Part shown: in pieces, positions 2,102 to 17,865 of the stretch
How positions within the stretch are numbered: the stretch's first letter is position 1
Layout of the letters: every line of letters starts with the position of its first letter
From: an uncultured Chloroflexia bacterium
GTDB taxonomy: Bacteria; Chloroflexota; Limnocylindria; Limnocylindrales; CSP1-4
Assembly: GCA_963813535.1 (NCBI GenBank)
Contig: CAWEZH010000002.1
Span: 1,120,573-1,184,572, forward strand
Direction: 5' to 3'
DNA length: 64,000 nt
Notes under the pieces: model-generated
What the model was told of the DNA's origin: nothing
Seen by the model: only the letters and a program-made list of their open reading frames with translations
Database searches by the model: none
Program-made: the position numbers and the translations under genes

Positions 2102-2140
2102 CCCGCCCGCGGGCCGCGCGAAGTTCGCCTAAGGCAGTAT

Positions 2141-2471: not shown

Positions 2472-2885
2472 TCAGACCCGATCGGCCACGCTAACGCCAC
2501 CGGGGCTAGGCCGGACGAACCCCGCATTGAGCGGATGCACCGTGACTCGTGCGTCACCCAACAGGTGCGCTTTCTCGCGAAGCTGCGCCACGACCTCGTC
2601 CGTCGGATCCCCGTACACGTCGATCGACTGCAGGCGAACCAGATCAACGAAGTTCCGGAACGCCGGGCCGGCCACCCGGAAATGGGTCGCGAGCGACGCG
2701 GCGTCGGCATGAACGTGGACCACTGAGATCGTCCTGTGATCCTCGTCGAGATACGCGGCGTACGAGATGATCCGTGGCTCATCAGCCTCGACGAGGTCCA
2801 CTAGTTCGGTGATCCGCTTGGTCAGCTCACCGAGACGGCCCTCGACGATCTCGGAGCGGTCGACGTATACGATCGGACCAGACAC
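2472..2885 (-). CDS. ABM (antibiotic-biosynthesis-monooxygenase/Dabb-like) domain protein
   Basis: The 137-aa ORF has the pattern IVYVDRSEIVEG...ISYAAYLDEDHRTISVVHVHADAASLATHFRVAGPAFRNFV, typical of small ferredoxin-fold ABM proteins. Codon bias is good. Confidence 0.5.
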   Translation of the reverse strand: MSGPIVYVDRSEIVEGRLGELTKRITELVDLVEADEPRIISYAAYLDEDHRTISVVHVHADAASLATHFRVAGPAFRNFVDLVRLQSIDVYGDPTDEVVAQLREKAHLLGDARVTVHPLNAGFVRPSPGGVSVADRV

Positions 2886-2957
2886 AGCGACCTCCGTGCG
2901 CGCGATCGGACGTCACCAGAACGCGTGCGTGTAGAGGCATACTCCTACACCCACCCG

Positions 2958-3024
2958 ACCCGGCTCCGGTCCCGGACCGTCGATCCCGCTCCCGCGGCCA
3001 GTCGGTCCGGGCCGACCGTGGGCA
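2958..3024. repeat. interspersed GC-rich repeat, copy R3
   Basis: The sequence acccggctccggtcccggaccgtcgatcccgctcccgcggccagtcggtccgggccgaccgtgggca lies between two minus-strand genes. Confidence 0.55.
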
Positions 3025-3110
3025 AGACCCAGGCGCAGCATCCCCTCCTGCAGGCCTCGCGTAAGAGCCGTTTCCCGCCGACGACTTCGATATGTCTTTT
3101 CGAGCCCGCC

Positions 3111-3479
3111 TTACGCGCTCTCTACAGCGAGGGGTTCGAAGCTATATGTCCCAGTCCAATGCCATAAGCCGTCCGAATCCGCCGTAACGTTGGCGTGGGC
3201 CTCGAATCCAGCGAACTTCCCCGTCCCTCCCGAGAACGTCGCCGTCCCCTTATTGGCGGCAAGATCGAGTACGACGTGGCCCGTCGCAGTGTTGGCGGCT
3301 CCCGCGTCGAGGACGACGTCGGTGTCAAGAGTGCCCTCGCTCGCCGCCTCGGCGTAGATGACCTTCGCACCCGCTCCGATCTCGTCGAGGTTCGAGGAGG
3401 TGATCGTACAGAAGTCACCGGCCCGGCCCGTGTATTCCGAGCACTCTTTGGTGACCTGGAGATCCCCGCTGCGAGCCAT
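3111..3479 (-). CDS. hypothetical protein (122 aa, Gly/Thr/Ala-rich)
   Basis: The ORF begins MARSGDLQVTKECSEYTGRAGDFCTITSS... and has good GC3. The longer track ORF 3111..3791 has an improbable N-terminal extension. Confidence 0.5.
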   Translation of the reverse strand: MARSGDLQVTKECSEYTGRAGDFCTITSSNLDEIGAGAKVIYAEAASEGTLDTDVVLDAGAANTATGHVVLDLAANKGTATFSGGTGKFAGFEAHANVTADSDGLWHWTGTYSFEPLAVESA

Positions 3480-3747
3480 AGCGACCCTCCTTCTCGCAGT
3501 CCGTCGCCAATCAGCGCGACACCGGGACTCTACACCCGGTGCGTTGTGGGCCAGCCACGCGGATCTTGTCGCCCGCCATGACAGCCGAGGCAATCCCCTA
3601 CCTCGTTTGGAGACATCTGCCTTCAGCGGCGCGACACTGTGCAGACGTCTCACGTCGAGATGCTCTCGGGCCGCGCAAGAAGGACTAGGAGGCCCAGCAG
3701 GCGGCGGAGTCGCTCGTAGCCCAAGCCGAGCGACTCGGCGATGCGTG

Positions 3748-4020
3748 TCAGTAGATGCCCACGAACAACCGGCGCGGCGGTTCGTCAGCATCGAGGCCGG
3801 CGCTGAGGTCGGAACTGACCGGGTCGCCCGCGTCCCGCGGATCGATCACAACATGGTGCAGGCGCCAAAGGGCCTCCTGCTTTGGGTCGGTCGACCAAAC
3901 GTGCGAAAGACGTACCTGAGCTCCAAGCTGGGACACGTACTCGACTGTCATGACGAGCCACGGGTGCTCCCACGCACCGCTTGGCAGGAGCAGATCGCTG
4001 ACCTTGACGTATAGCTCCTC
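3748..4020 (-). CDS. small hypothetical protein; possible -1 frameshift at the 3' end continuing into an HTH-like segment
   Basis: The frame reads ...VDEELYVKVSDLLLPSGAWEHPWLVMTVEYVSQLGAQVRLSHVWSTDPKQEALWRLHHVVIDPRDAGDPVSS... A second frame downstream (3650..3750) reads LLTRIAESLGLGYERLRRLLG, suggesting an indel. Confidence 0.3.
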   Translation of the reverse strand, partial: EELYVKVSDLLLPSGAWEHPWLVMTVEYVSQLGAQVRLSHVWSTDPKQEALWRLHHVVIDPRDAGDPVSSDLSAGLDADEPPRRLFVGIY

Positions 4021-4157
4021 GTCTACGCCGGCAGCAATCGCTGCGAGGTTAGCGAGACGACGTGACGGCTACGTGGTCGGACTATCCTCCTGGCCAGTGG
4101 GCCATGGTGAGCATCCGGACGCAGCGCAGCATGCGGCCCGTCGCCAAGGAGTCTCGA

Positions 4158-4892
4158 ATGGGCACCCGCGGGGTCCTGTCCCTGATCATGTGCTTGCCGT
4201 TAGCGGGCTGCATGAACAGCACACCGAACCCGCCAGCCGGCCCAACGGCCGCGGCGATCGCGACGGTCGCGACGACGGCTTCGGTGCCCACCGCCGAAGC
4301 GACACCGACCACGACACCAGTGACGCCGAAGCCCGATCTGACCGCGGAGCCGACACCTCGGTGGTCGAAGCTCGAGCGGGCGATCCGGGACAACATTCGT
4401 GACGACGCGGCGGTGGGTTGCGCGCCGAGACGCCACGATCTCCCGCCGGGCACGGTCGCGGCCGTCGAGTGCAGGCCCGGCGTGGCCCTAGTCAGTCGTG
4501 TCGGCTTCTACCTCTTCGCCTCACCGGACGACGCTTTCGCTGTCTACCTCGACCGCGTCAAAGAACAGGGCTTGGCGCTGAACACCGAGCGAGGCCTTCG
4601 CGGCTGGGAACGCGCCATGTACATCTGTAGCGACGAGCAGTGCGCGGAGCGCGACGCCGGCTTCGTAAATAGCGACGGCTACGCCAACTATCGATCCGTC
4701 ATGGGCGCCATGTACATCGGCGTCTTGGGCACACGTGACGACATCGAAGACCTCAGGGGTTGGGCATGGGAGAGCCGCGAAGAATGTCCGCCGGGGCCGG
4801 ATACATGCGCGGTTCCAGAAAGCCCGAGCCTCTATTGCGACGGCTCGCGCGTCGCCGCCGACGCCTCGTGCGTTGAACCCGTCAGCGCCTAG
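4158..4892 (+). CDS. lipoprotein (Ser/Thr/Pro-rich linker, then a Cys-rich domain)
   Basis: An AAGGAG Shine-Dalgarno sequence lies 7 nt upstream of the ATG. The N-terminus MGTRGVLSLIMCLPLAGC contains an LAGC lipobox, followed by a PT-rich linker and a conserved-looking C-terminal domain with several Cys. Confidence 0.65.
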   Translation: MGTRGVLSLIMCLPLAGCMNSTPNPPAGPTAAAIATVATTASVPTAEATPTTTPVTPKPDLTAEPTPRWSKLERAIRDNIRDDAAVGCAPRRHDLPPGTVAAVECRPGVALVSRVGFYLFASPDDAFAVYLDRVKEQGLALNTERGLRGWERAMYICSDEQCAERDAGFVNSDGYANYRSVMGAMYIGVLGTRDDIEDLRGWAWESREECPPGPDTCAVPESPSLYCDGSRVAADASCVEPVSA

Positions 4893-5168
4893 GCGACCGG
4901 GCCCCCGCTGGACTGGAGTAGCCGCTAGGGCACGCAGATTTCGATGCCGACCTTGTATGCGCACCCACTGGATGACCAGGCCGCTAGAGACAGCAAGAAC
5001 ATGGCCGGCAGCGTCAGCAGCGTGAGCAGTCCGGCTACCAATGTCAGCCCGATAGCGGTGCGGTGCCCGGCACCGGAAGCCCCCGCGAGCGGGCCGGGCC
5101 GGCGTCGTCGCCGGCCGATGACCCTCGGGTCTACCTAGCGCGTTGAGGAGGCTCCACCTTGGCTGCGC

Positions 5169-5618
5169 CTACGGCACCCTCGTCGTCTCAACCGACACAT
5201 CAAACCACCCGACATCGGGGGCATAGTCCGTGGCAACCACCCGACCATCCTGGATCACCGACGCCCATACGTAGAAGGGCCGGTGCTCCAGGCTCATGCC
5301 GATCGTGCCAGTGGGCGTGTCCGACTCAAAGAAGAAGCGGCCATGAAACATTGCTTGAAAGCGGGTCTCGCCAACGTAGTCAGGGTCGCGTCCCTGTAGC
5401 GTCGTTCGACCAGTGTGGAGATCGGTGATCCACGTCCGATAGTGGTCCCAGCCCGCCACTGTCTCGGGCGTGTTGTCCTTCCCGACCCGCCGGTCGGGGA
5501 CGCCGTCGCGATCGTCATCAAAGACAACGCCATACGCGATCCACTGCTCGGTGGGATCCACGTCGGGTGGGAATTTGGGGAGTGTGAAATATAGCACCCG
5601 CCTCATACGAGCCCGCAC
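5169..5618 (-). CDS. hypothetical protein (149 aa)
   Basis: Intact ORF with good codon bias. Translation includes MRARMRRVLYFTLPKFPPDVDPTEQWIAYGVVFDDD... and no family was recognised. Confidence 0.5.
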   Translation of the reverse strand: MRARMRRVLYFTLPKFPPDVDPTEQWIAYGVVFDDDRDGVPDRRVGKDNTPETVAGWDHYRTWITDLHTGRTTLQGRDPDYVGETRFQAMFHGRFFFESDTPTGTIGMSLEHRPFYVWASVIQDGRVVATDYAPDVGWFDVSVETTRVP

Positions 5619-5643
5619 CTCCTGGATGTCGACCCATGGGAAG

Positions 5644-6189
5644 TCATCGGATCCGGTGTCGCCCGACGGATCGATGTGTCGGCCTGGCGGTGGCGCTAGG
5701 TAGCGTCGGTCCCCGAGATCTCTGCTTCACAAGGATCGGCACGAGGATCGCGCCTCCGGCGGGCTCGGTGCGAACCGGCGCGGGCCAGTCCTCCTTCAGA
5801 CTCGCCTCGGTCCACAGGATCGGCGTGGGCGTGGGGCTGGGCGTCGCCGTAGGCGTCGCGCTGGGGCCAACCTGGGCAGACTCGCTGGGATCCGCGCTTG
5901 GCGTCGGGCTCGGACCGCCGACCGCTGATGGGTCGGGCCGGTTCACGTAGTACAAGCCGCCGAGCGCAAGCACGGCGATGACCGCGGCCGCAACGACGCG
6001 GGCCGGCAGCGTCATGGTCGGGAGCCTCGCCGGGGCTGACCACCAGGCGAACCTACGGGGCTGCGGGCGCCCAGCGGCCACGGCCATGATCCGCTGATAG
6101 AGATCGTCCTCGCCGCCGACGTCGGCGGCGCGTTCTCGAAGCGCCGCGGCGAGGTCACTGGCGACGCTGTCCTGGCTGCGCCTAGTCAT
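5644..6189 (-). CDS. putative membrane-anchored anti-sigma factor
   Basis: It lies immediately downstream of the ECF sigma gene with a 4-nt overlap. It has an N-terminal cytoplasmic segment, one TM helix (VVAAAVIAVLALGGLYYV) and a PT-rich extracytoplasmic tail. The call rests on position and topology only. Confidence 0.5.
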   Translation of the reverse strand: MTRRSQDSVASDLAAALRERAADVGGEDDLYQRIMAVAAGRPQPRRFAWWSAPARLPTMTLPARVVAAAVIAVLALGGLYYVNRPDPSAVGGPSPTPSADPSESAQVGPSATPTATPSPTPTPILWTEASLKEDWPAPVRTEPAGGAILVPILVKQRSRGPTLPSATARPTHRSVGRHRIR

Positions 6190-6749
6190 GCTTGAGTCTC
6201 CAGAGCCCGATCTAGGGATTTGCGTGCGGCGTGAAGTCGCGACTTCGCCGTGCCCACCGGGATGCCGAGCCTATGAGCGATCTGTTCGAGCGGCTGATCC
6301 AGGAGGTGGTGCATGGCGAGGATCTGGCGATCTGCGATGGACAGTCGGTCGAAGGCCGCAAGGACGGCGGCTCGCTCCAGCGCCGCCGGGCCGGGATCGG
6401 CCTGCTGGAGGTCGGCGCCTTCGAGGGTGATCTCCCGCACGCGGCCTCGATTGCGGAGGTGGTCGCGGCAACGATTGGCGAGCACAGTGTTCAGCCAGGC
6501 GCTGAAGCGGCGATCGTCCCGCAGCCGAGGGAGATTGAGCCAGGCTGAAACGAAGGCCTCCTGCGTCGCATCGCGGGCATCGGCCTCATTGCGCAGGATC
6601 GACCGGGCCAGGCGCAGCATGTCGGGCAACCGGGCCGCCACAAGGGCGCCGAACGCCTCCGCGTCGCCGCGACGGGCTCGCGCCACGAGCGCGTCGTCAG
6701 CGGCGTCAGACCCGTTGTGCACGGTCTCTGTCAGTGCCACGGGAAGCAT
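6186..6749 (-). CDS. ECF (sigma-70 family, group 4) RNA polymerase sigma factor
   Basis: The N-terminus ARARRGDAEAFGALV is followed by region 2 (FVSAWLNLPRLRDDRRFSAWLNTVLANRCRDHLR) and region 4 (LSIADRQILAMHHLLDQPLEQIAHRLGIPVGTAKSRLHAARKSL). Confidence 0.85.
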   Translation of the reverse strand: MLPVALTETVHNGSDAADDALVARARRGDAEAFGALVAARLPDMLRLARSILRNEADARDATQEAFVSAWLNLPRLRDDRRFSAWLNTVLANRCRDHLRNRGRVREITLEGADLQQADPGPAALERAAVLAAFDRLSIADRQILAMHHLLDQPLEQIAHRLGIPVGTAKSRLHAARKSLDRALETQA

Positions 6750-6826
6750 GGTCGCGGCGGGAAAGGTTCCATGCTAGGTACGACGTCTGGCGAGTCGCCC
6801 GGGTTCGACCTGATTTGTGTTGTGTA

Positions 6827-6990
6827 GGGCGTCGACGTATCAGCGGCCGTCCTGACCGGGCATGAGGCGATATCCGGGGCGGTCGCCTCGAGCGATCATC
6901 CGCCGGCCAGCCTGGGCCGTGGCCTCCTGTTGTCGCCTCGCTCGTCCGTCGTGCCATGCGGTCAGTGTGGGGTGAGCGCGACACCAAGGC
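6827..6990 (-). pseudogene. partial second copy of the hicB-like segment (N-terminal portion only, in-frame TGA)
   Basis: About 85% identical to 1532..1700. It translates as MARRTSEA...QAGRRMIARGDRPGYRLMPGQDGR*YVDA, with a stop where copy A has Trp. Confidence 0.35.
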
Positions 6991-7071
6991 TGTCACCACC
7001 CCCAGGCGCGTGCCGCGCTTGTACGCTTGTAGCACCTCCTATTCGGCGGTCGTACTCATTTTCTGACACGG

Positions 7072-7614
7072 GTGGAGCCGGAGAGTGGTAACGCTGCCTT
7101 CCATTTCGCGTCATTGGATCGGATGGCGCTCATGGAACGATCGAGACCCACGCAACGTCGGTCCCGTCGAAGGTGGGTGCCGTGGCTCGTCGCGGCCGCG
7201 ATCGGTCTCGGCCTGATTGGTTACGGCTTCACATACGCTCCGCCGCCGACATCGCTCAGCTTGACCGGGAAGGTCTGGCAGTGGACTGCGTACGGCGATG
7301 ATTCCGGCACGGTCCCAATCGAGGATCCTGAGCGCTACACCATCGTCTTCAACGAAGATGGGACCGCGGTCGTCACGGCAGACTGCAATCGATCGCCGTG
7401 GAGTTACACGATCGCAGGGTCCTTCCTACGACCCACGATATGGCTGCAATCGCACGCGGAAGAATGGTCCCCGTGCGCGCCAGGCTCTAGGGCTCAGCTC
7501 TTTGTTGATCACCTGTGGCCGACCGACACATTCAGTGTCTCGGCCGATCGCCTGGAACTCGATCGGGACCACTACGGAATCAGTTGGGCCCTCACGCTCA
7601 AAGCGTCTCCCTGA
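7072..7614 (+). CDS. membrane-anchored META/HslJ-like (DUF306) domain protein
   Basis: One N-terminal TM helix (WLVAAAIGLGLIGYGF) is followed by a domain with YTIVFNEDGTAVVTADCNRSPWSYTIAGS. The start codon is uncertain (7072, or a later in-frame ATG in MALMERS...). Confidence 0.5.
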   Translation: MEPESGNAAFHFASLDRMALMERSRPTQRRSRRRWVPWLVAAAIGLGLIGYGFTYAPPPTSLSLTGKVWQWTAYGDDSGTVPIEDPERYTIVFNEDGTAVVTADCNRSPWSYTIAGSFLRPTIWLQSHAEEWSPCAPGSRAQLFVDHLWPTDTFSVSADRLELDRDHYGISWALTLKASP

Positions 7615-7684
7615 CGGCTCGAGCATTCGACCGGCGGGACATGGCGACACGTGTGGGACAACGGCCAACAGGTAGGGTGTCATC

Positions 7685-7758
7685 GCCCCGGCCCCGGTCC
7701 CGGACCTTCGATCCCGGCTATCCCCCCGCCGGTCAGTCGGTCCGAGCCAACCGAGGCG
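7685..7758. repeat. interspersed GC-rich repeat, copy R4
   Basis: The sequence ccccggccccggtcccggaccttcgatcccggctatccccccgccggtcagtcggtccgagcc lies directly upstream of the SnoaL-like gene at 7775. Confidence 0.55.
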
Positions 7759-7774
7759 ATCGGGAGGGTCCGCG

Positions 7775-8131
7775 ATGCTCCGAGCCGAGGAAGCCTACGA
7801 GGGATACGAGCGGGCGTGGAACGAGCCCGGGCGGGCGGCTGCTCTTCTCGAAAGGGTCTGGGCGCCGGAGGGTGTCTACGCCGACGACGACGTGCCAGAC
7901 GGTGTCGTCGGGCCCGTGGCGCTCGCCGCCCTCATCGTCGAGACACATAAGGCGCTGCCGGGCTTCCGGGTCTGGGCGACGAGCGGCCCGCGGATGCTTG
8001 CGGAGCGCATGGCGATCACCTGGGCGGGGGAAGGAGGCGACCCGCCGATCCCGCAGGCCGGCACCGATGTCATCGAGTTCGGCCCTGACGGCCGGATCAC
8101 CCGCATCACGGACGTGCTCGACATCGACTGA
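7775..8131 (+). CDS. SnoaL-like/NTF2-fold (ketosteroid-isomerase-like) protein
   Basis: The 118-aa ORF has the NTF2-like pattern (EEAYEGYERAWNEPG...; C-terminal GRITRITDVLD) and size of that fold. It is weaker than the paralogs at 9677 and 15702. Confidence 0.55.
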   Translation: MLRAEEAYEGYERAWNEPGRAAALLERVWAPEGVYADDDVPDGVVGPVALAALIVETHKALPGFRVWATSGPRMLAERMAITWAGEGGDPPIPQAGTDVIEFGPDGRITRITDVLDID

Positions 8132-8288
8132 CCAGGCCGGCGGAGACAGTCCGGCCTGGTGACGGCATCCAGGCGCAGATGGCGAGGATGGAAGCCAGAG
8201 GTATCACCGATACGGACGCGATGCTCGAGGACGCGGCCTGCTTTCTCCTTGGAGTCTAGTGTGCGGGCCGCGGCCGCTGGCCTGTCAG

Positions 8289-8355
8289 CGCCTCGGCTCC
8301 GGTCCCGGACCTTCGATCCCGCTTCGGCGGCCAGTCGCTCCGGGCCGACCGGGCA
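8289..8355. repeat. interspersed GC-rich repeat, copy R5
   Basis: The sequence cgcctcggctccggtcccggaccttcgatcccgcttcggcggccagtcgctccgggccgaccgggca is present here. Confidence 0.55.
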
Positions 8356-8497
8356 CTGCGCCTCAGCCAAACTTCGACCTAGACAATGCAAGCGGGCTAT
8401 CGACTTTCGGCGCGGCGCCGACACGTGGCCGATGACGCGAAAGAGGCGCGGATAGACAGGGGGTCTAAGCTGGTCGCACGTCACGGGGGACGTCGCG

Positions 8498-9362
8498 TTG
8501 CCGTCAAAGGAAACGCAGACGGGCGTGGGGATACTCATCGGCTTGGTCGTCCTCATCGCCCTCGCTCAACTTGTTATCGCCGCTCCGGCCTGGTCAGGCC
8601 CGGGACCTCGACCGGCGATCTTGGTCCCCCCCGTAGCCGGCGTCACGCCCGAGACGCCCACACCCGGGCGTGTTCCGTCCACTCCAGCGCCGGCCACTCC
8701 AGCCCCTGGCGTGGCCGTCGTTGAATTGACCCGGTCCACAGCGGACGCGGGACCGATTGATCTGCAAGCTGGCGGATCATCGTCACCGCCAGCGCCGACT
8801 CCGAGCGGCTTGGCGACGCCTGCCCCCTTGTCGTCACCGCCAGCGCCGACTCCGAGCGGCGTCGCGACGCCACCCCCCGGCGAGGTTTCCTTCCCGACTT
8901 CGCAGCCGACGCCGCCCGCGGCCTCGCCCACGCCCGACCCGACGCGGCCGCCATCGCCGCCACCGACTGCAGCACCGACCCACCAGCCCACGCGGGCGCC
9001 CACACCGCCGCCAACGCCGGCGCCGACGCCCAACCCAACGCCGGCGCCCACGCCCGCCCCAACACCGGATCCGACGCCGGCCCCGACACCGGATCCAACG
9101 CCGCCGCCGACGCCCGACCCAACGCCGGCACCGACACCCGATCCGACGCCGGATCCGACGCCGGCCCCGACACCGGATCCAACGCCGCCGCCGACGCCCG
9201 ACCCAACGCCGGCACCGACACCCGATCCGACGCCGGATCCGACGCCCGACCCGACGCCGGCCCCGACACCGGATCCAACGCCGGATCCGACACCCGACCC
9301 CAACGCCGGAACCGACACCCGATCCAACGCCGGATCCCACGCCCGAGCCGCAGCCCGGGTAA
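8498..9362 (+). CDS. secreted/membrane-anchored Pro-Thr-repeat protein, frameshifted near 9296 within the repeat (likely true stop at 9362)
   Basis: An N-terminal hydrophobic segment ([23 protein letters not shown]) is followed by about 40 PTP(D/A) units. A C-run (cgaccccaacg versus cgacccaacg) shifts the frame, and the +2 frame continues [20 protein letters not shown]. Confidence 0.55.
8900..9340. repeat. tandem degenerate 12-nt repeat (CCGACNCCGGAY)n encoding (PTPD/PTPA)n
   Basis: Directly visible in the sequence. The antisense and alternative frames give the spurious GSGVG-repeat and Arg-rich ORFs in the track. Confidence 0.8.
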
Positions 9363-9676
9363 CGTCGGTCCCCAGAACTGGGCCCGCTAGCCTTTCGACC
9401 GCCGCGGGTCCGGTCGACCGATGGTGTTCTGCAACCCTGGCGCGCGTACATCGCCCGGTCACCGGGGGCGCGTTGACGAAGCCATCGGTGATTGGGTCGG
9501 TTGCCCGGTGCGGCTAGGAAGTCGGAGTCATCGTCCGGGCCGTGGGTCTAACTTGACAGTGAGGCTTGCCGCGGTCGTCGTCCCAGGAGCGAGTCGCCAC
9601 CGATGATTGCCAAGCTCGGGGTACGGTCGCAAGATGACCGTCCGTCGCAGTCCGAACCACTGGGAGGAGCGGAGAG

Positions 9677-10066
9677 ATGGCGCATCCGAACGAGGATCTG
9701 GTCCGTCGCGGTTTTACGGCGTTCGGGACCGGAGACATCGCGACGCTAGGCGAGTTGTTCGCCGACAACATCGTCTGGCATGTCGGTGGACGCAGCCCGA
9801 TCACCGGGGATTACAAGGGCAAGGAACAGGTCTTCGGGTTTTTTGCCCAGCTCGCCGAACGGGCTGGGGGGACTTTCCGCCTTGACATCCACGACGTGCT
9901 GGCGAACGACGAGCATGTGGTCGCGCTGGTCAAGGCGACCGGGGAGCGCCAAGGGAAGACGCTGAACAACAACGGAGCGCAGGTCTTCCATGTGCAGGGT
10001 GGAAAGGTCACCGAGGTGTGGTTCCACCCGGACGACCAATACGCCGGCGACGACTTCTGGAGTTGA
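9677..10066 (+). CDS. SnoaL-like/NTF2-fold protein (paralog of 15702..16076)
   Basis: Translation includes LVRRGFTAFGTGDIATLGELFADNIVWHVGG..DEHVVALVKATGERQGKT...VFHVQGGKVTEVW, the characteristic SnoaL-like pattern. A GGAGCGGAGAGATGG-type Shine-Dalgarno sequence is present. Confidence 0.7.
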   Translation: MAHPNEDLVRRGFTAFGTGDIATLGELFADNIVWHVGGRSPITGDYKGKEQVFGFFAQLAERAGGTFRLDIHDVLANDEHVVALVKATGERQGKTLNNNGAQVFHVQGGKVTEVWFHPDDQYAGDDFWS

Positions 10067-10140
10067 CCCGGACCGAGCCAACTCTCGATCCCGGCTGCCA
10101 TCGCCGACGGCCGGTCAGTCAGCCCGGGCCGACCGGGGCA
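10066..10140. repeat. divergent copy R6 of the interspersed repeat
   Basis: It shares ctcgatcccggct...gccggtcagtc.gcccgggccgaccgggg with R4 and R5. It lies between the SnoaL-like gene and the tRNA fragment. Confidence 0.4.
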
Positions 10141-10215
10141 TTCATTGAGCAGTTAACAACGGGCACATCGCAGGGTGGCCCACTCACGGGAGCACGCCGC
10201 GTTGAGCCGGACATT

Positions 10216-10253
10216 TTAGAAGGCGCCTGCTCTGTCCACTGAGCTACGGGGAC
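10216..10253 (-). tRNA. truncated tRNA-Arg(TCT): 5' half only (acceptor 5' strand, D-arm, anticodon stem 5' strand and loop); 3' half absent
   Basis: The minus strand reads GTCCCCGTAGCTCAGTGGACAGAGCAGGCGCCTTCTAA. This is near-identical in architecture to bacterial tRNA-Arg(UCU) up to position 38, after which the complementary anticodon-stem strand, T-arm and acceptor 3' strand are missing. Confidence 0.6.
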
Positions 10254-10322
10254 GTCGTTAGCGCCTCAGCATACGCACGAAAACCGCCGGATCGACCTTG
10301 GCTCGTTGACGACCATCCGTGA

Positions 10323-10991
10323 TCAGGTCCTCTTGAATGTCCCGTCGCACGTCCGGTTCGTGGCATCAAGCACGTGAGTGAAGATCTTCTTGTTGTTATC
10401 CATGTCGTTATGCGGGACCCCGGGGTCCTCAAAGACGTGGCACGCGCCGCCATCGAGCCGCGATGAGTTGTTCGAGACGACACCATCGGTCCGGCTGTAG
10501 ATCGTGGTCCAGTAAACGTGGGTCGGCGTGTCGTCACCGGCATTGAGACTGCGCAGGAATGACCTCGACGGGCACATCTGGCCACCCTGCGACGAGAACA
10601 GCAGGCATGTCCTGAGTAGCCCGTACTGCGGGGTCCCAAGTGACACGTAGGTGTCGACTCTGGAGGTGCCGATCGTCTTGATGAAGTATCGAGCGCTCAG
10701 ACCGCCCATGCTCTGCGCCACGATGTCGACGTCATCCCAGCCTTTGCTGGTGATGAAGTCGCGGATCGCCTGGGCGTTCTTGATGTTGTCCTGGCCCGGC
10801 AACCGAATCGCTTCTGCCTGGCGGCCGGCGAGCCTGAAGCGGTCGATCATCTCGGCCCATGTCGACGGGCTACCTCGCCACCCATGGACGAGCAGCACCG
10901 GATCGTTCTTGGCGGCTGCCGCCGTGCTCGGCGCCATCGCGACTGCCAGGATTCCCAAGATCGGCACCAGGATCCACCGCGTCGCGCGCAT
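10323..10991 (-). CDS. secreted triacylglycerol lipase/esterase, lipase class 2 family (Bacillus LipA/EstA-like)
   Basis: A GGGGAGGGG Shine-Dalgarno sequence precedes the ATG. A signal peptide (MRATRWILVPILGILAVAMAPSTAAAA) is followed by VLLVHGW, the nucleophile elbow DIVAQSMGG, WTTIYSRTDGVV and SRLDGG. These match B. subtilis LipA blocks (VVMVHG, DIVAHSMGG, YTSIYSSADMIV, SRLDGA). Confidence 0.85.
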   Translation of the reverse strand: MRATRWILVPILGILAVAMAPSTAAAAKNDPVLLVHGWRGSPSTWAEMIDRFRLAGRQAEAIRLPGQDNIKNAQAIRDFITSKGWDDVDIVAQSMGGLSARYFIKTIGTSRVDTYVSLGTPQYGLLRTCLLFSSQGGQMCPSRSFLRSLNAGDDTPTHVYWTTIYSRTDGVVSNNSSRLDGGACHVFEDPGVPHNDMDNNKKIFTHVLDATNRTCDGTFKRT

Positions 10992-11172
10992 GTCGGCCCC
11001 TCCCCATTCGACGGTGAGCAGTACCGCGGAGGGTACCCGCACCCCGGCGTGGGTGGAATAGCACAGGTGACGCCACAGCGTGGCGTCGACGTTTCCGGCG
11101 GTACAGGCGTTCTAGGCCGCGCCGCTGACGGGGTACGCTACGGGCGTTGGGATCAAGAGCCGGGGAGGACCC

Positions 11173-11841
11173 ATGACCGACGAAAGCGCGCGCTCACGGC
11201 GCGCAGTCCTTGCTGCCGGTCTTGGTGGCGTAGCCGCGGCAGCAACCGCGGCCGTCATACGGCCTGCCGCGGCCCTCGGCGCCAACGGCGACAACGTCGT
11301 GCTCGGACAGGCAAATACGGCGACGGCGGCGACGGCGATCCAGAACACGGGGACGGCCGATCCGGACACGCTCGTGGTCGATAGCCAATCGGGCTTCGCT
11401 GTCATCGCGAGGAGCGAGGACGGAAGCGGCATCGAGGGCCAGGCCCCGAACGGGCTGGGCGTATCCGGACTCGGACAGGTCGGGGTCGTCGGGGAGGGAA
11501 CTGAATCGGGCGTTCGGGGCATCAGCTCCGGTAATGGGATCGGGGTTTTCGCGACGACGGAGACCGGGCTCGCACTCCTCGTCGACGGCAAGGTGGGCCT
11601 GACGCGGAGCGGCAGGGTCTCAGTCGCACGAGGCAAGGGATCCGTCGACATCACCATCCCCGGCGGCATCACCAGTCGGACGGTCGTCATGGCGACCCTC
11701 CAACGGTATCGCACCGGGGTCGCGATCGCGGGTGTCAACCTTAACTGGCCTAGCGCCGGCAAGGCCCGGATCTATCTCACGAAGATCCCGTCGACCACGA
11801 CGACGACGCCTGTCGCGTGGATCGCTACGGAACTCCCGTAG
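11173..11841 (+). CDS. Tat-signal secreted hypothetical protein
   Basis: A GGAGGA Shine-Dalgarno sequence precedes the ATG. The N-terminus contains SRRAVLAAGLGGVAAAATAA (twin-arginine motif plus h-region), followed by a Gly/Ala-rich beta-type domain. Confidence 0.6.
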   Translation: MTDESARSRRAVLAAGLGGVAAAATAAVIRPAAALGANGDNVVLGQANTATAATAIQNTGTADPDTLVVDSQSGFAVIARSEDGSGIEGQAPNGLGVSGLGQVGVVGEGTESGVRGISSGNGIGVFATTETGLALLVDGKVGLTRSGRVSVARGKGSVDITIPGGITSRTVVMATLQRYRTGVAIAGVNLNWPSAGKARIYLTKIPSTTTTTPVAWIATELP

Positions 11842-11953
11842 CGTTTCGCCGCCTCGCGCCCTTGGACGCAGCGAGCGCGTCCCCGGGCACTGCGATGCCG
11901 TTCCTCTGGTCGGACCCGACGTAGCCGCCGCGGGGCTTACCTGCGGCGCGGGT

Positions 11954-12187
11954 CAGTCGAGCTTCCCCGTCGCGATCCACCGGCCGAAGAGCTCGACCTT
12001 GTCGGACGACCAGCCGCCGTCACACGGCATCGTGCCCTGCCGGAGACGACCGAGGATCGCCTCGGCGTTCGACCGGACCGTCAACCTCCCAGAGATCGAA
12101 GGCGAAGGCCATGGATTCGCGGTCCCTGGGTCGAAACAGGGGCTTGATGTGCTGCGCGAAGCTGACCGGTCGATCGGCGTCTGCCAT
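11954..12187 (-). CDS. small conserved-looking hypothetical protein with an apparent 1-nt frameshift near 12070
   Basis: Frame A reads MADADRPVSFAQHIKPLFRPRDRESMAFAFDLWEVD. The +1 frame continues TVRSNAEAILGRLRQGTMPCDGGWSSDKVELFGRWIATGKLD*, and both halves have good GC3. Confidence 0.35.
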
Positions 12188-12282
12188 GGTCGCGGTGATC
12201 TCCTCGTGCTTCGATCTGGATGTTGAGAGCACCAGGCAGGGCGGTCAGGTTCTTCGCCGCCTGCCTGGTGCCTCGCTCAGGA

Positions 12283-13179
12283 CTAGGCGAACCGCTTGAC
12301 GAAGTCGAGCGCGGTCTGGGCGACCTCGCGCCAGCCGTGGTCGATGGTGAGGGAGTGGCCTCGGTTCGGGATCTTCACGATCTCCGTCACGCCGGGGTTG
12401 CGCTTCTGCCGCTTGTAGGCGGCGTCCGCGATCGCCCATGGCACCGTGTGGTCCTTCTCTCCCTCGATGATCAGCAGCGGGCCGCGGTCCGGGTTCTTCG
12501 TGTCCACCTTCGCTTCGGTCCACGGATTGAGGTTCGCGTTGCCCATCTGCGCGAGCGAGATCCCGGAGGCGGCGACATGGAACTTGTCGTAGAGCTCCAT
12601 GGCCTCATCCTCGTCCAGGTTGTTCGTCCAGGCGTATCGGAACTGGTCGAACGTGAGCGTCAGCGCGCGGCCGCGATTGCGCGGGTTGATCAGGAACGGG
12701 CCGGCCGACCTGAGCACCGACAGCGGCAGCGGCAGAACGCCACGGAAGACTCCCGGGTCGATCGCCACGGTGACCGCCGCGAGCCCCTGCCCCGCGAGCA
12801 TCTCCGCGAGCAGACCGCCCGTCGAGTGGCCCATGACCACTGGCTTCCTGTCGAGGGCACTGATGATCTGGGTCGTGTGATCGGCCACCTGCTTCAGGGT
12901 CTTGTTGGCGAGGACCTCGGGCTCCGCACGGGCTTCCTCGACGGTTTCGGGATCATCAGGCCAGTCTGGCGTCAGCGCGACGTACCCAGCTTCCTCGAAC
13001 AGCGCGGCCCAGTTGTCCCAGCTCGAGGGCAACAGCCACAGCCCGTGGATGAAGATCACCGGTGTCGCCGTGGTCGCGTTCGCGCGCTCGATCTGCTCGC
13101 GCTCGCGATCGGAGATCGTCGCGCCCTCTCGATCCTGAGGGGCCACGGGCAATTCGGCCTGTGCAGACGTCGTGTTCAT
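12283..13179 (-). CDS. alpha/beta hydrolase fold protein
   Basis: Translation contains VIFIHGLWLLPSSWDNW and the nucleophile elbow GHSTGG, plus C-terminal acid/His regions. Confidence 0.8.
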   Translation of the reverse strand: MNTTSAQAELPVAPQDREGATISDREREQIERANATTATPVIFIHGLWLLPSSWDNWAALFEEAGYVALTPDWPDDPETVEEARAEPEVLANKTLKQVADHTTQIISALDRKPVVMGHSTGGLLAEMLAGQGLAAVTVAIDPGVFRGVLPLPLSVLRSAGPFLINPRNRGRALTLTFDQFRYAWTNNLDEDEAMELYDKFHVAASGISLAQMGNANLNPWTEAKVDTKNPDRGPLLIIEGEKDHTVPWAIADAAYKRQKRNPGVTEIVKIPNRGHSLTIDHGWREVAQTALDFVKRFA

Positions 13180-13198
13180 CCTTCGACTCTCCTCTCGT

Positions 13199-13996
13199 CT
13201 AACGGGCAGCTGCCGCCGCCGGAACAGATGCGTTCTCTCGGAGCCAGTCGTCGAGACGGATCTCGCCGAGCGTCGCGTCCGGGCCCGGGACGAGCGTGCG
13301 CTCGGCCAGGGGAGCCCCGAAGTACCGCGCCTGCGGGTCCGTCAGGATCTCGCGCGGGTCGTCCTTCGCGCCAAGTACTCGCCGGATGAGCGTGTCGAGG
13401 CGGAACTGCTCCGGGCCGCCGACCTCGACGATCCGGTTCGCTGCGGTCCCTGTGGCAGCGCGAGCGACCGCCGCGGCAACGTCCTCGGCCGCCATCGGCT
13501 GGACCAGTGCCTCGGACAGGTGGATCGTGTCGCCATGCGTCGCGTCATCGGCGATCTTGTCCACGAACTCGAAGAATTGGGTGGCGTGGACGATGGTGTA
13601 GGGGATCGGCGACGTCTTGATCAGGGTCTCCTGGGTGAGCTTCGCCCAGAAGTAGCCGGCGATCGTCGTCGTCAGGTCGGCGCTCTGCGCCAGCTCCTTG
13701 GTGCCGACGACCGATAGGGCGACGTGGTGACCCACGCCGGCCTCCTCCTCGGCATCGCGAAGGTTGGTGGTCGACTTTCCGAAGAACTCGATGGCCGGAG
13801 CGAAGTCGAACGATGGTGAATTCGACACGTCAACCACGACTGAGGTGCCCTTGAGCGCTGCCGCGACCCCTTCGCCGGTGATCGTGTTGATGCCCAGCCT
13901 GGGCGATGCGGGGACGGTCTCGTGGCCGTCTTCCTCGAGCTTGGCGACGACCTTCGAGCCGATCAGCCCGGTGCCGCCGATGACGACGATCTTCAT
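13199..13996 (-). CDS. NAD(P)-binding NmrA/atypical SDR family oxidoreductase
   Basis: Start chosen at MKIVVIGGTGLIGSKVV, a Rossmann GxxGxxG motif. The 405-aa track ORF has a low-quality N-terminal extension that was rejected. Confidence 0.8.
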   Translation of the reverse strand: MKIVVIGGTGLIGSKVVAKLEEDGHETVPASPRLGINTITGEGVAAALKGTSVVVDVSNSPSFDFAPAIEFFGKSTTNLRDAEEEAGVGHHVALSVVGTKELAQSADLTTTIAGYFWAKLTQETLIKTSPIPYTIVHATQFFEFVDKIADDATHGDTIHLSEALVQPMAAEDVAAAVARAATGTAANRIVEVGGPEQFRLDTLIRRVLGAKDDPREILTDPQARYFGAPLAERTLVPGPDATLGEIRLDDWLRENASVPAAAAAR

Positions 13997-14803
13997 GAGG
14001 GGTTGCGTCCTTTCCGTGTCTGGGCGCGAAGGCAGTGGGTCGTCGTGGTAACGATGATCAGTGGCCTCACCCACCCTCTCGATCGGCGTGGCCCGCGGCA
14101 TCGGCCCGGAGACGGGTGTATGGGATGACACGGATCTCGAGCGAGGCAGGGGTGCCTGGCATCGAGTGGAGAACAGCGCTCCCCCATGCGTCCCGGCTCT
14201 CGCAAGGAAGGTGAGAAGGCGGTCCATCTCCGCGTCGCGCCCCACCAGGTGACCGGCTGGACGAGCGTCGCCTAGCCATGCCTCGCACTGGGGAGCGGGG
14301 GTTTCGAGCATGGAGCGCAGCGGTGCGGGTGGACTGACAGGTCCGCACGGCAAGTTTGGACCTTCGGCAGATGGCGGGCAAGCGCCCGACGCCGCGTTTG
14401 GAGTCGTCTGACCCAAGACGGTCGATCGACCCCGGCCAGGACCATGGCGGCATTAGACGAAGCTGTTCCGTCGACCGCTTGATGCGCCTCTTGACGTAGC
14501 CGCTGACTGCCTGGTCAGCACAGCGGTATCGCGCTCGGTCGATCGTTCCGATCTAGCCGCGCGGGTCGTCTGGGACGCGCAGCAGCCCGGTCGCGAACAT
14601 GGCGATGAGAACCGCCACGACCACGCATAGAGCGAGCGGAACTAGTACTTCACTCATGCCGGAATGGTGCCCGCGCGATCTGTCCGGCTCGTTATCGATG
14701 CGTTAGCGAACCGAGACGCAGCCATCCAAGCTGCGCGCTATCTGAGCGAACCGCACATGGATGCGGCGTCGTCATTCCGCCTCCGAGCGCGCTGACCTCG
14801 ATC

Positions 14804-15559
14804 TCAATACTCGCCGGCAAACACGCCGATGCGCTCGAACTCGAGCGGCACGTCGATGAGGATCAATTCGGCCCCGACGTTCGTCCGCAACGTCAGTTCG
14901 ACTGCGTCAGTCACCTTGAGGGCGTCCCCTGTCGCAAGGCGCTCTTCGTCGACCTCGATCCTTCCGTCGATGACATACAGGTAGCCGCCCCGACCTTTCC
15001 CGAACACGTGCTGTAACTCGGCGCGGTCGGTGAGGTGAGAGACGAGCGCCCGGGCGTCCTGCGCCAGGTCGAGCCCATCCGTCCCGGCCGGACCCATGAT
15101 CTGGAGCCAGCGATCCGTTCGGTCCTCGACCGTGTACTGGCGCTGCTGGACGCGGGTATCGAGGCCTCGGACGCCCGGCAGGATCCAGAACTGGATGAAC
15201 CGCAAGGGGTAGTCGGCCGAGCCGTTCTTCTCTGCGTGCTGATCGCCGCGATGGGAGAACGTCATCACCTGGGCTGCGCCGGGCTCGAGACGGCCGTTGT
15301 TGCCGAGCGAATCGGCGTGCAGGAAATGCCCCTCGACGACGTACGTCAGCGACTCGATGTCCTGGTGCGGGTGGAGTGGCCACTCGGCTCCGGCAATGAT
15401 CCGGTCGTCGTTGAACACGCGCAGCGCACCGACGCCCAGCTGCTCCGGATCGCGATACCGGTCGAACGAGAAGTGCCAGCGAGCGTCGAACCAGCCACCC
15501 TCCTCATGCCAGATCGAATCAGCCTCGCGGATCGCCACTGACCTGGTCGAGTTCTCCAT
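14804..15559 (-). CDS. pirin family (bicupin) protein
   Basis: Translation contains HPHQDIESLTYVVEGHFLHADSLGN....AAQVMTFSHRGDQHAE, a pirin metal-binding cupin motif. The length of 251 aa also fits. Confidence 0.85.
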   Translation of the reverse strand: MENSTRSVAIREADSIWHEEGGWFDARWHFSFDRYRDPEQLGVGALRVFNDDRIIAGAEWPLHPHQDIESLTYVVEGHFLHADSLGNNGRLEPGAAQVMTFSHRGDQHAEKNGSADYPLRFIQFWILPGVRGLDTRVQQRQYTVEDRTDRWLQIMGPAGTDGLDLAQDARALVSHLTDRAELQHVFGKGRGGYLYVIDGRIEVDEERLATGDALKVTDAVELTLRTNVGAELILIDVPLEFERIGVFAGEY

Positions 15560-15701
15560 CGTCGACCTCCTCTTCCTCTGCGCGCCGGGCTCACGGTCGT
15601 TTCGAAGCGGGCGATCCGTGGAGAGTACGCTGACCGTTACCGCATCGGGTCCGAGCCGCTGTCACCGCGGCGTGCCGACCCGGGCCGACGGAGGATGAAC
15701 C

Positions 15702-16076
15702 ATGAGTGAGCACCCGAACGCGGTCTTGGCCCGCCAGATAGCAGACGCGTTGAGTCGCGGCGACATGCAGGACGCGGCGGAATTCATTGCTGACGATGTG
15801 ATCTGGCACGAGATCGGCAGCGCTGCGCCGCTACGCGGGAAGGCCGCCCTGGCTGCACGCAGCGGCGGCGCTGTCGACTACGAGATCACCGGCACGATGC
15901 ACGACGTCGTCGCGAACGACGAGCACACCATTGTGTTGGTTGACGCCACCGCGACCCGCGGTGGCAAGACATTCAAGTACCGGACGGCTGAGATCTATCA
16001 CGTTCGAGACGGCAAGATCACGGAACGCTGGGCATTCTCAGACGACACCGCTGCCATCACAGCGTTCTTCGCGTAG
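15702..16076 (+). CDS. SnoaL-like/NTF2-fold protein (paralog of 9677..10066)
   Basis: Translation includes AVLARQIADALSRGDMQDAAEFIADDVIWHEIG...DEHTIVLVDATATRGGKT..EIYHVRDGKITERW. A GGAGGATGAACCATG-type Shine-Dalgarno sequence is present. Confidence 0.7.
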   Translation: MSEHPNAVLARQIADALSRGDMQDAAEFIADDVIWHEIGSAAPLRGKAALAARSGGAVDYEITGTMHDVVANDEHTIVLVDATATRGGKTFKYRTAEIYHVRDGKITERWAFSDDTAAITAFFA

Positions 16077-16111
16077 AGGAAAGCACGGCCCGCCGCTCAG
16101 GGGCCAACGCC

Positions 16112-17050
16112 CTATGACGTGTTGACCTGACCGGTCAGCAGCAGGTAGACGAGTGTGGCGATGAGCGCCACGAGGACGATGACCACCACCAGTCGAACGA
16201 ACAGATCGACCCTGCTCCGGGCACCAAGGAGGCGACCCGGCCGTTCTTGGTCGACGTGTTCGTCATCCGCACCGACGCTTGCAACCTGGGCGAGCGTGGC
16301 CTGCTGAGGCTTGAGATCCGCGAACTGCCTGATGGCATCGGGGTCCATGACGCCTACGGGAACAAGGGCCGCGGAGGCCACATCATCGGCCGCATCCGAG
16401 CTCGACAACTGTGCCATCGCATCAGCGCGTGCCGCCGACGCCACCTCTTCGACATGTGGCGGCTCCGGCAGCTGGCTCGCCAACTGCGCGATATCGGTCG
16501 GTTCCCGTTCGACGGCGAGGAGGCCGACAAAACGACCTAGCTCCGCCTGATACTCCTCGACCGCCTCGCTGGCCCCGGAGATCTCCCGCTCCACCAGGGC
16601 GTCGTGCTGGCGCAGGTGCCGTTCGAGGTCCGCCTGTCGTGCGAGGATCCGACTCTCAGTCTCCAGACGGAGTCGCTCGCTTTCGTCCGCCGACCAGGCA
16701 TGGATCTGGCCGACGTCCTCGTCCGCGAGCCGCCTCAACTCCTCGGCCTCTTTCGCGGCGCGGGTTCGTACCTTTTGGACATGTGCCTCGAGGCTGTTCG
16801 CCGCCTCGGCAGCGATCCGCGCACGCTCGCCCTCGGCGGCCGCCTGCATCTGTCGGGCGATCACGTGGAGGAACGTGGGGACGACTCCGGCTTCAGCCGC
16901 CTCGCCGCGACCCTCGCCTATGGCCGCCGATGACACGGAGCCAGATGTCTCGTCCGTCAGGTCTGCCGTCTTGACACTCCCAGCAGTCGACCGATCAGCC
17001 GTCCCGGCTGACTCGTCTTCCGGATGGGAATGCTGCGTCTCGTGCTGCAT
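16112..17050 (-). CDS. hypothetical coiled-coil protein with C-terminal TM anchor
   Basis: An acidic N-terminus and long Ala/Glu/Arg-rich predicted coiled coil end in a C-terminal hydrophobic helix (LFVRLVVVIVLVALIATLVYLLL). The ORF is intact. Confidence 0.5.
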   Translation of the reverse strand: MQHETQHSHPEDESAGTADRSTAGSVKTADLTDETSGSVSSAAIGEGRGEAAEAGVVPTFLHVIARQMQAAAEGERARIAAEAANSLEAHVQKVRTRAAKEAEELRRLADEDVGQIHAWSADESERLRLETESRILARQADLERHLRQHDALVEREISGASEAVEEYQAELGRFVGLLAVEREPTDIAQLASQLPEPPHVEEVASAARADAMAQLSSSDAADDVASAALVPVGVMDPDAIRQFADLKPQQATLAQVASVGADDEHVDQERPGRLLGARSRVDLFVRLVVVIVLVALIATLVYLLLTGQVNTS

Positions 17051-17230
17051 GGGATCCCCGAGATCTTGCGCGCGCGTCCAAAAACCCTACCAGTGTCTGG
17101 AGCCTGTAGGCAACGCCTAGCCACAAGGCGTGGTGCGGATAGGAACCACAGGCGGCCACGGGGAGACGCTGGTGACCGCCTCCATCATCGGTATCCCAAC
17201 TCCAGGCATGTCGTACGCTTGGGACTCCCT

Positions 17231-17865
17231 GTGGACCGCCATCACCTGCTCCATCGAGCCCTCCGTCTTTCCGTCCTGAGCATCGTGCTCGCCGGTCTGC
17301 TCGGTGGCACCGCTGTGGTCGTCGGGTTGACGACCGGCAGCCTGTCGCTGCTCGGCTTCGGACTCGACGCGGCGATCGACTCGGCCGCCTCGGTCGTCCT
17401 CGTCTGGCAATTCCGGACCGAGGTCCGTGAGCCGCATCGAGCGGAGCGCATCGAGCGGCTCGCCGAAGGCGCAGTCGGCATCGTGCTCCTCGTCCTCGCG
17501 ACATACCTCGCGGTGAGCGCGGTGAACGCCATCGTCGCGCATGCCCACCCCGAGTCGAGTCCGGTGCGGACCGCGCTGCTCGTTGCCGCGTCGTCGTCCT
17601 CCCGCCCCTCGCGCTTGCGAAGTACCGGGTCGCACGAGCGCTGGACAGCGGGGCCCTTCGGGCGGACAGCATCCTCACCGCCATCGCCGCACTGCTCGGG
17701 GCGATCGGTCTCGTCTCCCTGCTCGTCGACGAGCTGTTCCACGTCCCCTGGGGCGATGCCGTGGGCGCCCTCATCATCGCCGTGATCATCGCTCGCGAGG
17801 GCTGGTCCTCGATCCAGGCGATCCGAACGTCAGACCCGATCCTGCCACGCCGAAATAGGGTCTAG
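17231..17865 (+). pseudogene. cation diffusion facilitator (CDF) family transporter remnant: frameshifted near 17592 and lacking the C-terminal cytoplasmic domain
   Basis: After a GTG start the frame reads MDRHHLLHRALRLSVLSIVLAGLLGG..GSLSLLGFGLDAAIDSAASVVLVWQF, the CDF TM1-2 signature. Following a 1-nt deletion in gcgtcgtcgtc, the -1 frame continues VVVLPPLALAKYRVARALDSGALRADSILTAIAALLGAIGLV...IIAREGW*. This totals about 210 aa against about 300 expected. Confidence 0.5.

Follow-up and report, generated by a model that had tools for sequence, protein, structure and literature searches.

A 64,000-nt stretch of an uncultured Chloroflexia bacterium, referred to here as the window, contains an orphan 5' half of a tRNA-Arg(TCT) gene, named F1 in this study. 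We propose that F1 comes from the chromosomal tRNA-Arg(TCT) gene, as its displaced 5' portion, and forms the promoter-side boundary of a ~13-kb genomic island inserted at the anticodon loop, with the gene regenerated at the far boundary; the probability we assign to this reading is roughly 0.7. A complete working tRNA-Arg(TCT) gene very probably sits at the other edge of the island, just outside the window.

The orphan tRNA half and its counterparts in other genomes

The 38-nt string GTCCCCGTAGCTCAGTGGACAGAGCAGGCGCCTTCTAA, read on the minus strand from 10253 to 10216, corresponds to positions 1-38 of tRNA-Arg(TCT) and spans the acceptor 5' strand, the D-arm, the anticodon-stem 5' strand and the full anticodon loop (CT-TCT-AA). 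It occurs only once in the window even when three mismatches are allowed, with a chance expectation of 0. Neither ARAGORN nor Rfam at the gathering threshold called a tRNA at this place, the sole tRNA reported by them in the window being tRNA-Glu(CTC) at 27189-27265, and a permissive Rfam scan of 9000-11500 gave neither a tRNA nor an intron family. Cutting the stretch at the break, which permits truncated matches, lets the Rfam tRNA model be aligned over positions 1-37 of 71 with 19.4 bits (E=0.035), a score below the gathering score as expected for only half a gene. Stronger evidence for the identity of F1 than this score comes from the intact 76-nt tRNA-Arg(TCT) genes of 25 reference genomes, the first 38 nt of which agree with F1 at 38/38 bases. 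Past the break the tRNA reads GCGCAAGG... and the window reads AATGTCCGG...; the position of the break has an uncertainty of up to 2 nt (36/37 to 38/39) because the foreign sequence begins with AA. No 3' half of the tRNA was found in the 64-kb window by pattern search, by search with three mismatches or by blastn-short, which gave chance matches of at most 11 nt. The original prediction of a tRNA-Arg(UCU) 5' half followed by diverged sequence is therefore borne out, with no 3' half within a few hundred bp and with a similarity to tRNA-Arg far beyond chance. The sequence immediately after the break, up to the nearest hairpin repeat, is homologous to neither tRNA, the relatives nor that repeat.

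A scan of one genome per species for the F1 38-mer yielded the 25 loci, labelled mostly as Chloroflexota, Candidatus Limnocylindrales and uncultured Chloroflexia, with one short contig labelled Gemmatimonadaceae. By these labels the organism is not an actinomycete, which the gene names in the original prediction had implied. Every one of them carries a complete 76-nt tRNA-Arg(TCT) gene, whose first 38 nt are identical to F1 and are followed by GCGCAAGGTCGCAGGTTCGAATCCTGCCGGGGACGCCA. In these relatives the intact gene joins a conserved block U on the upstream side to a conserved block D on the downstream side. Block U encodes a methylase-like protein, a TPM-domain protein, PspA, an enolase-superfamily enzyme, a DUF1611 protein and the tRNA-Glu(CTC) mentioned above, and its spacing to the tRNA is 7.6 kb in the window versus 0.1-3.3 kb in the relatives. 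Block D is common to 16 of 18 relative loci, where it begins 20-500 nt past the tRNA, and contains genes for a small membrane protein ending in IPRxIRQTPLD, a DUF5666 protein, a GT2 glycosyltransferase and two amino-acid permeases; nothing of it is present in the window. An unoccupied site, with the tRNA preceded by U and directly followed by D, was seen in 16-17 relatives. The DNA alignments to the relatives reach up to 28 nt upstream of the tRNA start, and all 25 stop at window position 10216, the 3' edge of the anticodon loop, making the break a breakpoint of synteny. The sequence beyond it (1..10215) is absent from the tRNA neighbourhoods of all 25 relatives.

The far end of the insert is visible in a contig of the same species from another sample (L031), a 20.4-kb locus taken around a 99%-identical homologue of the island open reading frame (ORF) 5169-5618 on a 112-kb ENA contig. 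This independent assembly is collinear with the window at 94-99% identity, window 1..10215 corresponding to L031 5395-15970 and window position 1 to L031 position 15970. F1 is found there at 5357-5394, with flanks identical in context on both sides and a near-identical junction, in which TTCTAA is followed by CTGTCCGG in L031 and by AATGTCCGG in the window (in the longer version, CTGTCCGGCTCAAC and AATGTCCGGCTCAAC, respectively). An intact tRNA-Arg(TCT) gene lies 13,235 nt from F1, at 18630-18705 on the plus strand like F1 (called by ARAGORN; 65.3 bits in Rfam against a gathering score of 29). It is the sole tRNA gene that ARAGORN detected in L031, and is followed by gene X (...TIRQTPLD*) and then by block D matching 17 relatives. 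Since window position 1 equals L031 position 15970, the intact gene is expected ~2.66 kb beyond the left edge of the window, and the island would extend over the same distance past coordinate 1. Only the orphan is visible in the window because the window is cut ~2.7 kb before the regenerated gene. The suggestion of a scar at the edge of a decayed genomic island at this end of the window is thus supported, given that homology to the relatives ends at the anticodon loop and that the insert measures 13,235 nt in L031.

The intact gene of L031 has G at position 38 (loop CTTCTAG), where the 25 relatives and both orphans have A. It may be a real variant at the edge of the crossover or a long-read assembly error.

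We further found a second orphan, F2, in L031 at 11662-11727, 6.3 kb beyond F1 and 97% identical to window 10282-10216. It belongs to the 768-nt segment that replaces 411 nt of the window (Table 1), and this segment carries F2 with its upstream region and tRNA positions 1-38, an ORF for a 162-aa membrane protein and a hairpin repeat. The part common to F1 and F2 comprises ~28-45 nt upstream and tRNA positions 1-38, to which a further CT is added in L031. The two orphans end at the identical nucleotide (...TTCTAACT) and then run into different sequences, which argues for a defined crossover point and not for random breakage, and which is as expected from repeated events at one such point. The internal position of F2 indicates an insert assembled in two or more steps, or else two islets in tandem.

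The upstream sequences display a further difference between the orphans and the intact gene. Compared with the orphans, the intact L031 gene is exact from position -1 to +37 and 92% identical over ~53 nt, back to about -16 to -23 (...CTGAGGCGCT...), while its more distal upstream sequence is unlike that of the orphans. F2 repeats the upstream sequence of F1 from -1 to about -28, and the intact L031 gene shares it from -1 to about -23. The orphan upstream region contains TTCGTGCGTATGCT, in register with TTCGTGCGTAnACT of several relatives. In an ungapped comparison the 45 upstream nt of F1 have at least 20 matches with 5-6 relatives (maximum 24-27, with ~13 expected by chance), whereas the upstream region of the intact L031 gene has at least 20 matches with one relative only. 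Because the orphan upstream region resembles those of the relatives more than the upstream region of the intact gene does, the native-type promoter appears to stay with the displaced fragment. The difference is modest, in the direction predicted by the proposed insertion, and the conservation of upstream regions does not run across all relatives. In a search with a position weight matrix of the relatives' upstream regions, the window upstream sequence ranks first of 127,910 45-mers, a rank that is not significant because the lead is only 0.4 bit.

Searches with the junction string and with an "orphan-only" pattern (position 39 not G) gave no match in metagenome contigs or viral contigs; for the junction string, this is partly because the sister strain differs by 2 nt right after the break. 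Exact look-ups of the two proteins flanking F1 gave no match in a protein collection whose genomes do not include the source genome.

Island contents and mosaic surroundings

The identification of 1..10215 as island DNA is supported by lower GC and lower GC at third codon positions (GC3), by accessory gene content and by the replacement of modules within the species. GC is 0.65-0.70 in the island and 0.70-0.75 in the core; GC3 is weaker in the island as well, although gene calling based on GC3 is weakly discriminating in a region of ~68% GC. In addition to the genes listed in Table 1, the island holds SnoaL-like proteins. A small ORF resembling Flp-family pilins (...GQGLAEYALVLALIAIIAIIALVVLG...) was read by eye at about 1060-1245 on the minus strand, with 82% DNA identity to a gene of metagenome contig L030. 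For three island proteins the viral collection contains no relatives, and a phage origin of the island was rejected on this ground. The region had been described as pseudogene-rich, which does not agree with our analysis: the SnoaL, lipase, alpha/beta-hydrolase, NmrA-like, pirin, ECF sigma and META-domain proteins all look intact, and the hicB-like fragments, the CDF remnant and the AfsR/LuxR remnant named in that description have no Pfam support.

Table 1. Features of the window around the orphan tRNA-Arg(TCT) half, with positions in the window
Feature	Position	Strand	Remarks
Island portion inside the window	1..10215	.	~10.2 kb of ~12.9-13.2 kb; accessory genes
Membrane protein	130-840		Island gene
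Five strong hairpin copies	950-1035, 1699-1791, 2947-3028, 7675-7768, 8280-8361	+	All in the island
Polymorphic module site	3632..4042	.	411 nt; unrelated 768 nt in L031 (11572-12339); sharp boundaries
149-aa ORF	5169-5618		Island gene
ECF sigma factor	6186-6749		Island gene
META-domain protein	7072-7614		Island gene
SnoaL-like gene cassette (ORF 9677-10066)	9595..10082	+	92-93% identical to metagenome contigs L029 and L030
Hairpin copy R6	10065..10150	+	Most diverged of six; directly after the SnoaL stop codon
Unique sequence right after the break, island-side junction arm	10146..10215	-	~70 nt; conserved at F1 of L031
Orphan F1, displaced 5' fragment of the tRNA gene	10216..10253	-	38/38 identity to 25 intact genes; also in L031
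Upstream promoter-like region kept with F1	10254..10299	-	Moderate evidence: 21-27 of 45 nt match ungapped in 5-6 relatives (~13 by chance)
Variable region on the promoter side of F1, outside the island	10300..17880	.	Homologues scattered at the equivalent position in relatives L008, L010 and L013
Conserved block U	17881..27265	.	In relatives 0.1-3.3 kb upstream of intact tRNA-Arg(TCT), same relative orientation

The window has an imperfect hairpin repeat of ~70 nt, whose six strong copies share one strand and lie without exception within the island; the remaining 53.8 kb contain no comparable copy and one weak match. L031 has eight strong copies (5459-16941), all of them between F1 and the intact tRNA gene, and two more were found in a different species (L033, 7719-7804 and 8809-8899) beside a homologous gene module. 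Hairpins are frequently found directly behind a stop codon, and the edges of two modules come to within about 10 nt of a hairpin base. The repeat matches no Rfam family, and its consensus is without attC core boxes. Possible roles are those of a terminator, an element like the repetitive extragenic palindromes (REP) or a recombination site. The original prediction had placed the tRNA fragment next to copy R6, which is real but does not sit at the breakpoint: 65-70 nt of unique sequence intervene, and R6 was for this reason rejected as the object inserted at the break.

Homologues of island genes in the more distant genomes L032-L034 occur in different contexts, with no tRNA-Arg(TCT) and no integrase. 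Those of ORF 5169-5618 sit 180-380 nt from tRNA-Pro(TGG) in L033 (10001-10700) and from tRNA-Arg(CCT) in L034 (10001-10856), and L032 has four tandem paralogues (10001-13467) after an ECF sigma/anti-sigma pair. The module of ORF 5169-5618 seems prone to reside in flexible DNA adjacent to tRNA genes.

The promoter-side region between F1 and block U encodes a class-2 lipase (10323-10991, minus strand), a 222-aa secreted protein, an alpha/beta-hydrolase, and NmrA-like, pirin and SnoaL-like proteins. The lipase unit (10274-11042) is 95% identical to contig L026, in which no tRNA-Arg(TCT) follows the lipase, and the flanks of the SnoaL cassette in L029 and L030 are unrelated to those in the window. 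Only the genes themselves are common to these close relatives of the lipase and SnoaL genes (L026-L030), which are informative for mosaicism and not for the tRNA. Within the species, a 1.3-kb segment of this region (window 11886-13195) with the alpha/beta-hydrolase gene (12283-13179) is absent from L031 as an insertion or deletion.

A segment of ~25 nt after the lipase stop codon has two copies in the window, at 10300-10323 and 9467-9492 (minus strand), which lie ~830 nt apart and flank the SnoaL gene, the hairpin and the half tRNA. L026 has one copy (915-968) that continues like the sequence after the second window copy. The match between the two window copies is marginal (z about 5; one shuffle tied the score). 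The duplicate looks like the trace of an insertion or of gene conversion; as the signature of an ~830-bp insertion it was rejected, with the match marginal and no single clean event fitting.

Two long tandem repeats with a 12-nt period were also observed. The one at 8877-9355 gives a Pro/Thr/Asp-rich stretch in ORF 8498-9517 with partial similarity to L020, and the other, at 38082-38339, consists of CAA/CAG/GGN-type codon units and is predicted to be Gly/Gln-rich in the frame of the repeat.

Origin of the insert

According to the proposed reading, F1 would be an attL-like displaced 5' portion, still attached to the ancestral-type promoter region. The island would have been inserted into tRNA-Arg(TCT) at the anticodon loop and would have brought its own tRNA 5' part with about 20-25 nt of upstream sequence, and the fusion of this part to the original 3' half would have regenerated a complete gene beside block D. 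This mode would be a "reversed-orientation" (5'-fragment) integration into a tRNA gene (tDNA). The crossover would be the work of a site-specific recombinase of the tyrosine type that acts at the anticodon loop and that has since been lost or is provided in trans. From L031 we infer that the window's own genome has the same far end as L031.

Several observations weigh against this reading. Six-frame Pfam scans (E<=0.01) of window 1-10215, in which the ECF sigma factor was recovered as a positive control, and of the L031-only parts of the island detected no domain of an integrase, other recombinase, transposase or phage, and the Pfam annotations of the L031 gene calls likewise contain none. No remnant of an integrase was found either, so that the island would be an old immobilised remnant or be moved in trans. 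A tyrosine integrase (PF00589) in particular is lacking, and membership among the islands of the Islander collection formally requires an integrase. Nothing of the anticodon-stem 3' strand follows the loop, so that attL lacks the usual inverted-repeat core. The far end has been seen in L031 and not in the genome of the window, an orphan of the F1 type occurs in none of the viral contigs and in no further metagenome contig searched, and neither an excised form nor an attP is known for the island. Finally, the variability of the promoter-side flank (10.3-17.8 kb) equals that of the island itself, and part of the pattern could thus reflect general turnover at a hot spot.

The last point leads to an explanation that we consider unlikely but worth serious attention, accretion at a hot spot without a dedicated integrase. 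A second copy of the promoter and 5' half would have arisen by local duplication, or through homologous or illegitimate recombination with DNA coming in from relatives, and accessory modules would then have accumulated between the copies with hairpins and short duplications as substrates. Such a history suits the lack of a recombinase in the island, the equally variable promoter-side flank, the ~25-nt segment on both sides of F1, the module replacement within the species and the strong mosaic of sharply bounded units in unrelated contexts (the lipase with L026, SnoaL with L029 and L030). However, it does not readily give two orphans that stop at the same nucleotide, at the classic crossover position in the anticodon loop, with different DNA after it, and an intact gene precisely regenerated and abutting block D is rarely produced by random breakage. 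A more speculative reading, improbable in our judgement, takes the island not for a decayed classical element but for a cassette platform docked at the anticodon loop of tRNA-Arg(TCT), with modules exchanged site-specifically via the hairpins as non-canonical attC sites and with F1 and F2 as by-products of successive dockings. If true, it would be an integron-like system anchored on a tRNA gene in an uncultured Chloroflexota lineage; it is given low weight because attC core boxes are absent and because contigs that share the SnoaL gene do not share the hairpin behind it.

The remaining explanations have to account for L031. The original prediction left integration and deletion side by side, and it is integration that is favoured by the empty site in the relatives and by the intact gene 13.2 kb further on in L031. 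For a deletion or rearrangement with its breakpoint in the tRNA gene that removed the 3' half and block D or carried them elsewhere, with no island involved, speak their absence from the window and the rarity of AGA (4 of 506 Arg codons), so that loss of the tRNA might be tolerated. Yet both the gene and block D are collinear in L031, the gene is kept in 25 of 25 relatives, and the presence of AGA codons, though rare, is consistent with a need for the intact gene; we rate this event as very improbable. Only a slender chance is left for an integration of the type known as tRNA-dependent lysogeny, in which a short core in the anticodon loop is used, the host gene is destroyed and an element-borne tRNA-Arg(TCT) compensates. 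Its attL has the same anatomy as F1 (host promoter, 5' part to the loop, foreign DNA, no reconstruction there; PMC10865867), but it is largely refuted by L031, where orphan and intact gene have a block of 38-53 nt or more in common instead of 8-10 bp and where the 65-bit gene at the other junction is fused to native block D; the island also has no integrase, phage gene or free-standing tRNA, and no relatives in the viral collection. An assembly chimera joining two unrelated sequences at the tRNA might be suspected from a source that is probably a metagenome-derived genome and from an exact junction string that is absent from two metagenome scans; with the same orphan, both flanks and a near-identical junction recovered in an independent assembly from another sample, it is hardly credible and was removed from consideration. 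A split or intron-containing gene, with a functional 5' half spliced in cis or trans to the 3' half, could be imagined from a break near the canonical intron position and a promoter-like region that is kept. It deserves next to no credence: no 3' half lies within 10 kb downstream or anywhere in the 64 kb, Rfam gave no group I or group II intron match, the sister strain has a complete uninterrupted gene, and a convergent protein gene begins 150 nt downstream of the break.

Insertion of an insertion sequence (IS) or transposon with a target-site duplication of 2-15 bp was likewise rejected, with no transposase present and a duplicated unit of 38-67 nt. A different mode of hitting the same locus was observed in relative L024, in which an ORF directly downstream of the intact tRNA-Arg(TCT) (3151-4553) was read by eye as an IS481-like DDE transposase, with a 15-nt duplicate of the tRNA 3' end beyond it.

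If the island reading is right, one boundary is fixed for a flexible island of ~13 kb in an uncultured soil Chloroflexota lineage of the Limnocylindria type, and tRNA-Arg(TCT) would be an insertion hot spot in this lineage, employed in the less common mode, by which the 5' half and the native promoter are displaced. For annotation, it accounts for what looks like a disrupted essential tRNA gene; since a working copy is expected immediately beyond the window, the genome ought not to be counted as one without tRNA-Arg(UCU). The lack of an integrase, the second fragment inside the insert and the hairpins restricted to the island make a concrete case for studying how islands accrete and decay.

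Comparison with known systems

The arrangement of small genes interspersed with same-strand imperfect hairpins of 70-85 nt, often after stop codons, resembles integron cassette arrays and the clusters of attC sites lacking integron-integrases (CALINs), and two module boundaries lie at hairpin bases. In contrast to such arrays, the hairpins lack RYYYAAC/GTTRRRY boxes; neither IntI, which is optional for a CALIN, nor a tyrosine recombinase domain was found in the island. The gene orientations are mixed, one 4.7-kb stretch is free of repeats, and the hairpin after SnoaL is not conserved with its gene.

The cis-mobilizable elements (CIMEs) of Streptococcus integrative and conjugative elements are integrase-less derivatives that accrete in tandem at one att site. 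The island is similar to them in that direct att/tDNA repeats flank recombinase-free DNA and that an internal extra att copy suggests successive integrations. It differs in its target, the 5' side of a tRNA gene, in having no transfer or mobilisation genes, and in that no parent element with an integrase was identified.

In the tRNA-dependent lysogeny of actinobacteriophages (Guerrero-Bustamante and Hatfull 2024), a core of 8-10 bp is used, the gene is never regenerated, and a phage tRNA with an adjacent integrase is required (PMC10865867). The junction of host promoter, tRNA 5' part to the anticodon loop and foreign DNA, leaving a non-functional copy, is alike in both. Membership of the island in this group is excluded by the length of its shared block (38 nt exact, 53 nt at 92%) and by the regeneration of the gene at the other junction.

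The closest known counterparts are the 5'-fragment islands of the Islander collection, in which 159 of 3919 islands (about 4%) have a 5' fragment and 3760 have a 3' fragment, and which includes 2083 anticodon-centred attP sites (PMC4383910). For 5'-distal recombination, examples are known but rare (PMC6563490). As in the 5'-fragment islands, F1 is an end fragment and not an internal piece of the tRNA gene, and L031 provides the intact gene in the same orientation with F1 upstream, the placement that Islander requires of 5' fragments (PMC4383910). The length of 13,235 nt in L031 lies within the range of 2-200 kb, an empty site exists in the relatives, and the crossover falls at the anticodon loop, which like the T-loop/acceptor junction is a known sublocation. 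The differences, apart from the integrase, are the internal second 5' fragment of the sister strain (tandem or accreted), the anticodon-stem 3' strand that is not duplicated at attL, the host, an uncultured Chloroflexota lineage of the Limnocylindria type, and the cargo, made up of small accessory genes with hairpins instead of phage or conjugative genes. Like the elements of "reversed target orientation" (Zhao and Williams 2002, as cited in PMC6563490), the island would have the native promoter with the fragment and a regenerated gene with a different upstream sequence. Current understanding is not overturned by this finding: as a reversed, 5'-fragment tDNA island the feature is of a known though uncommon kind, and the instance described here is new and has some unusual features.

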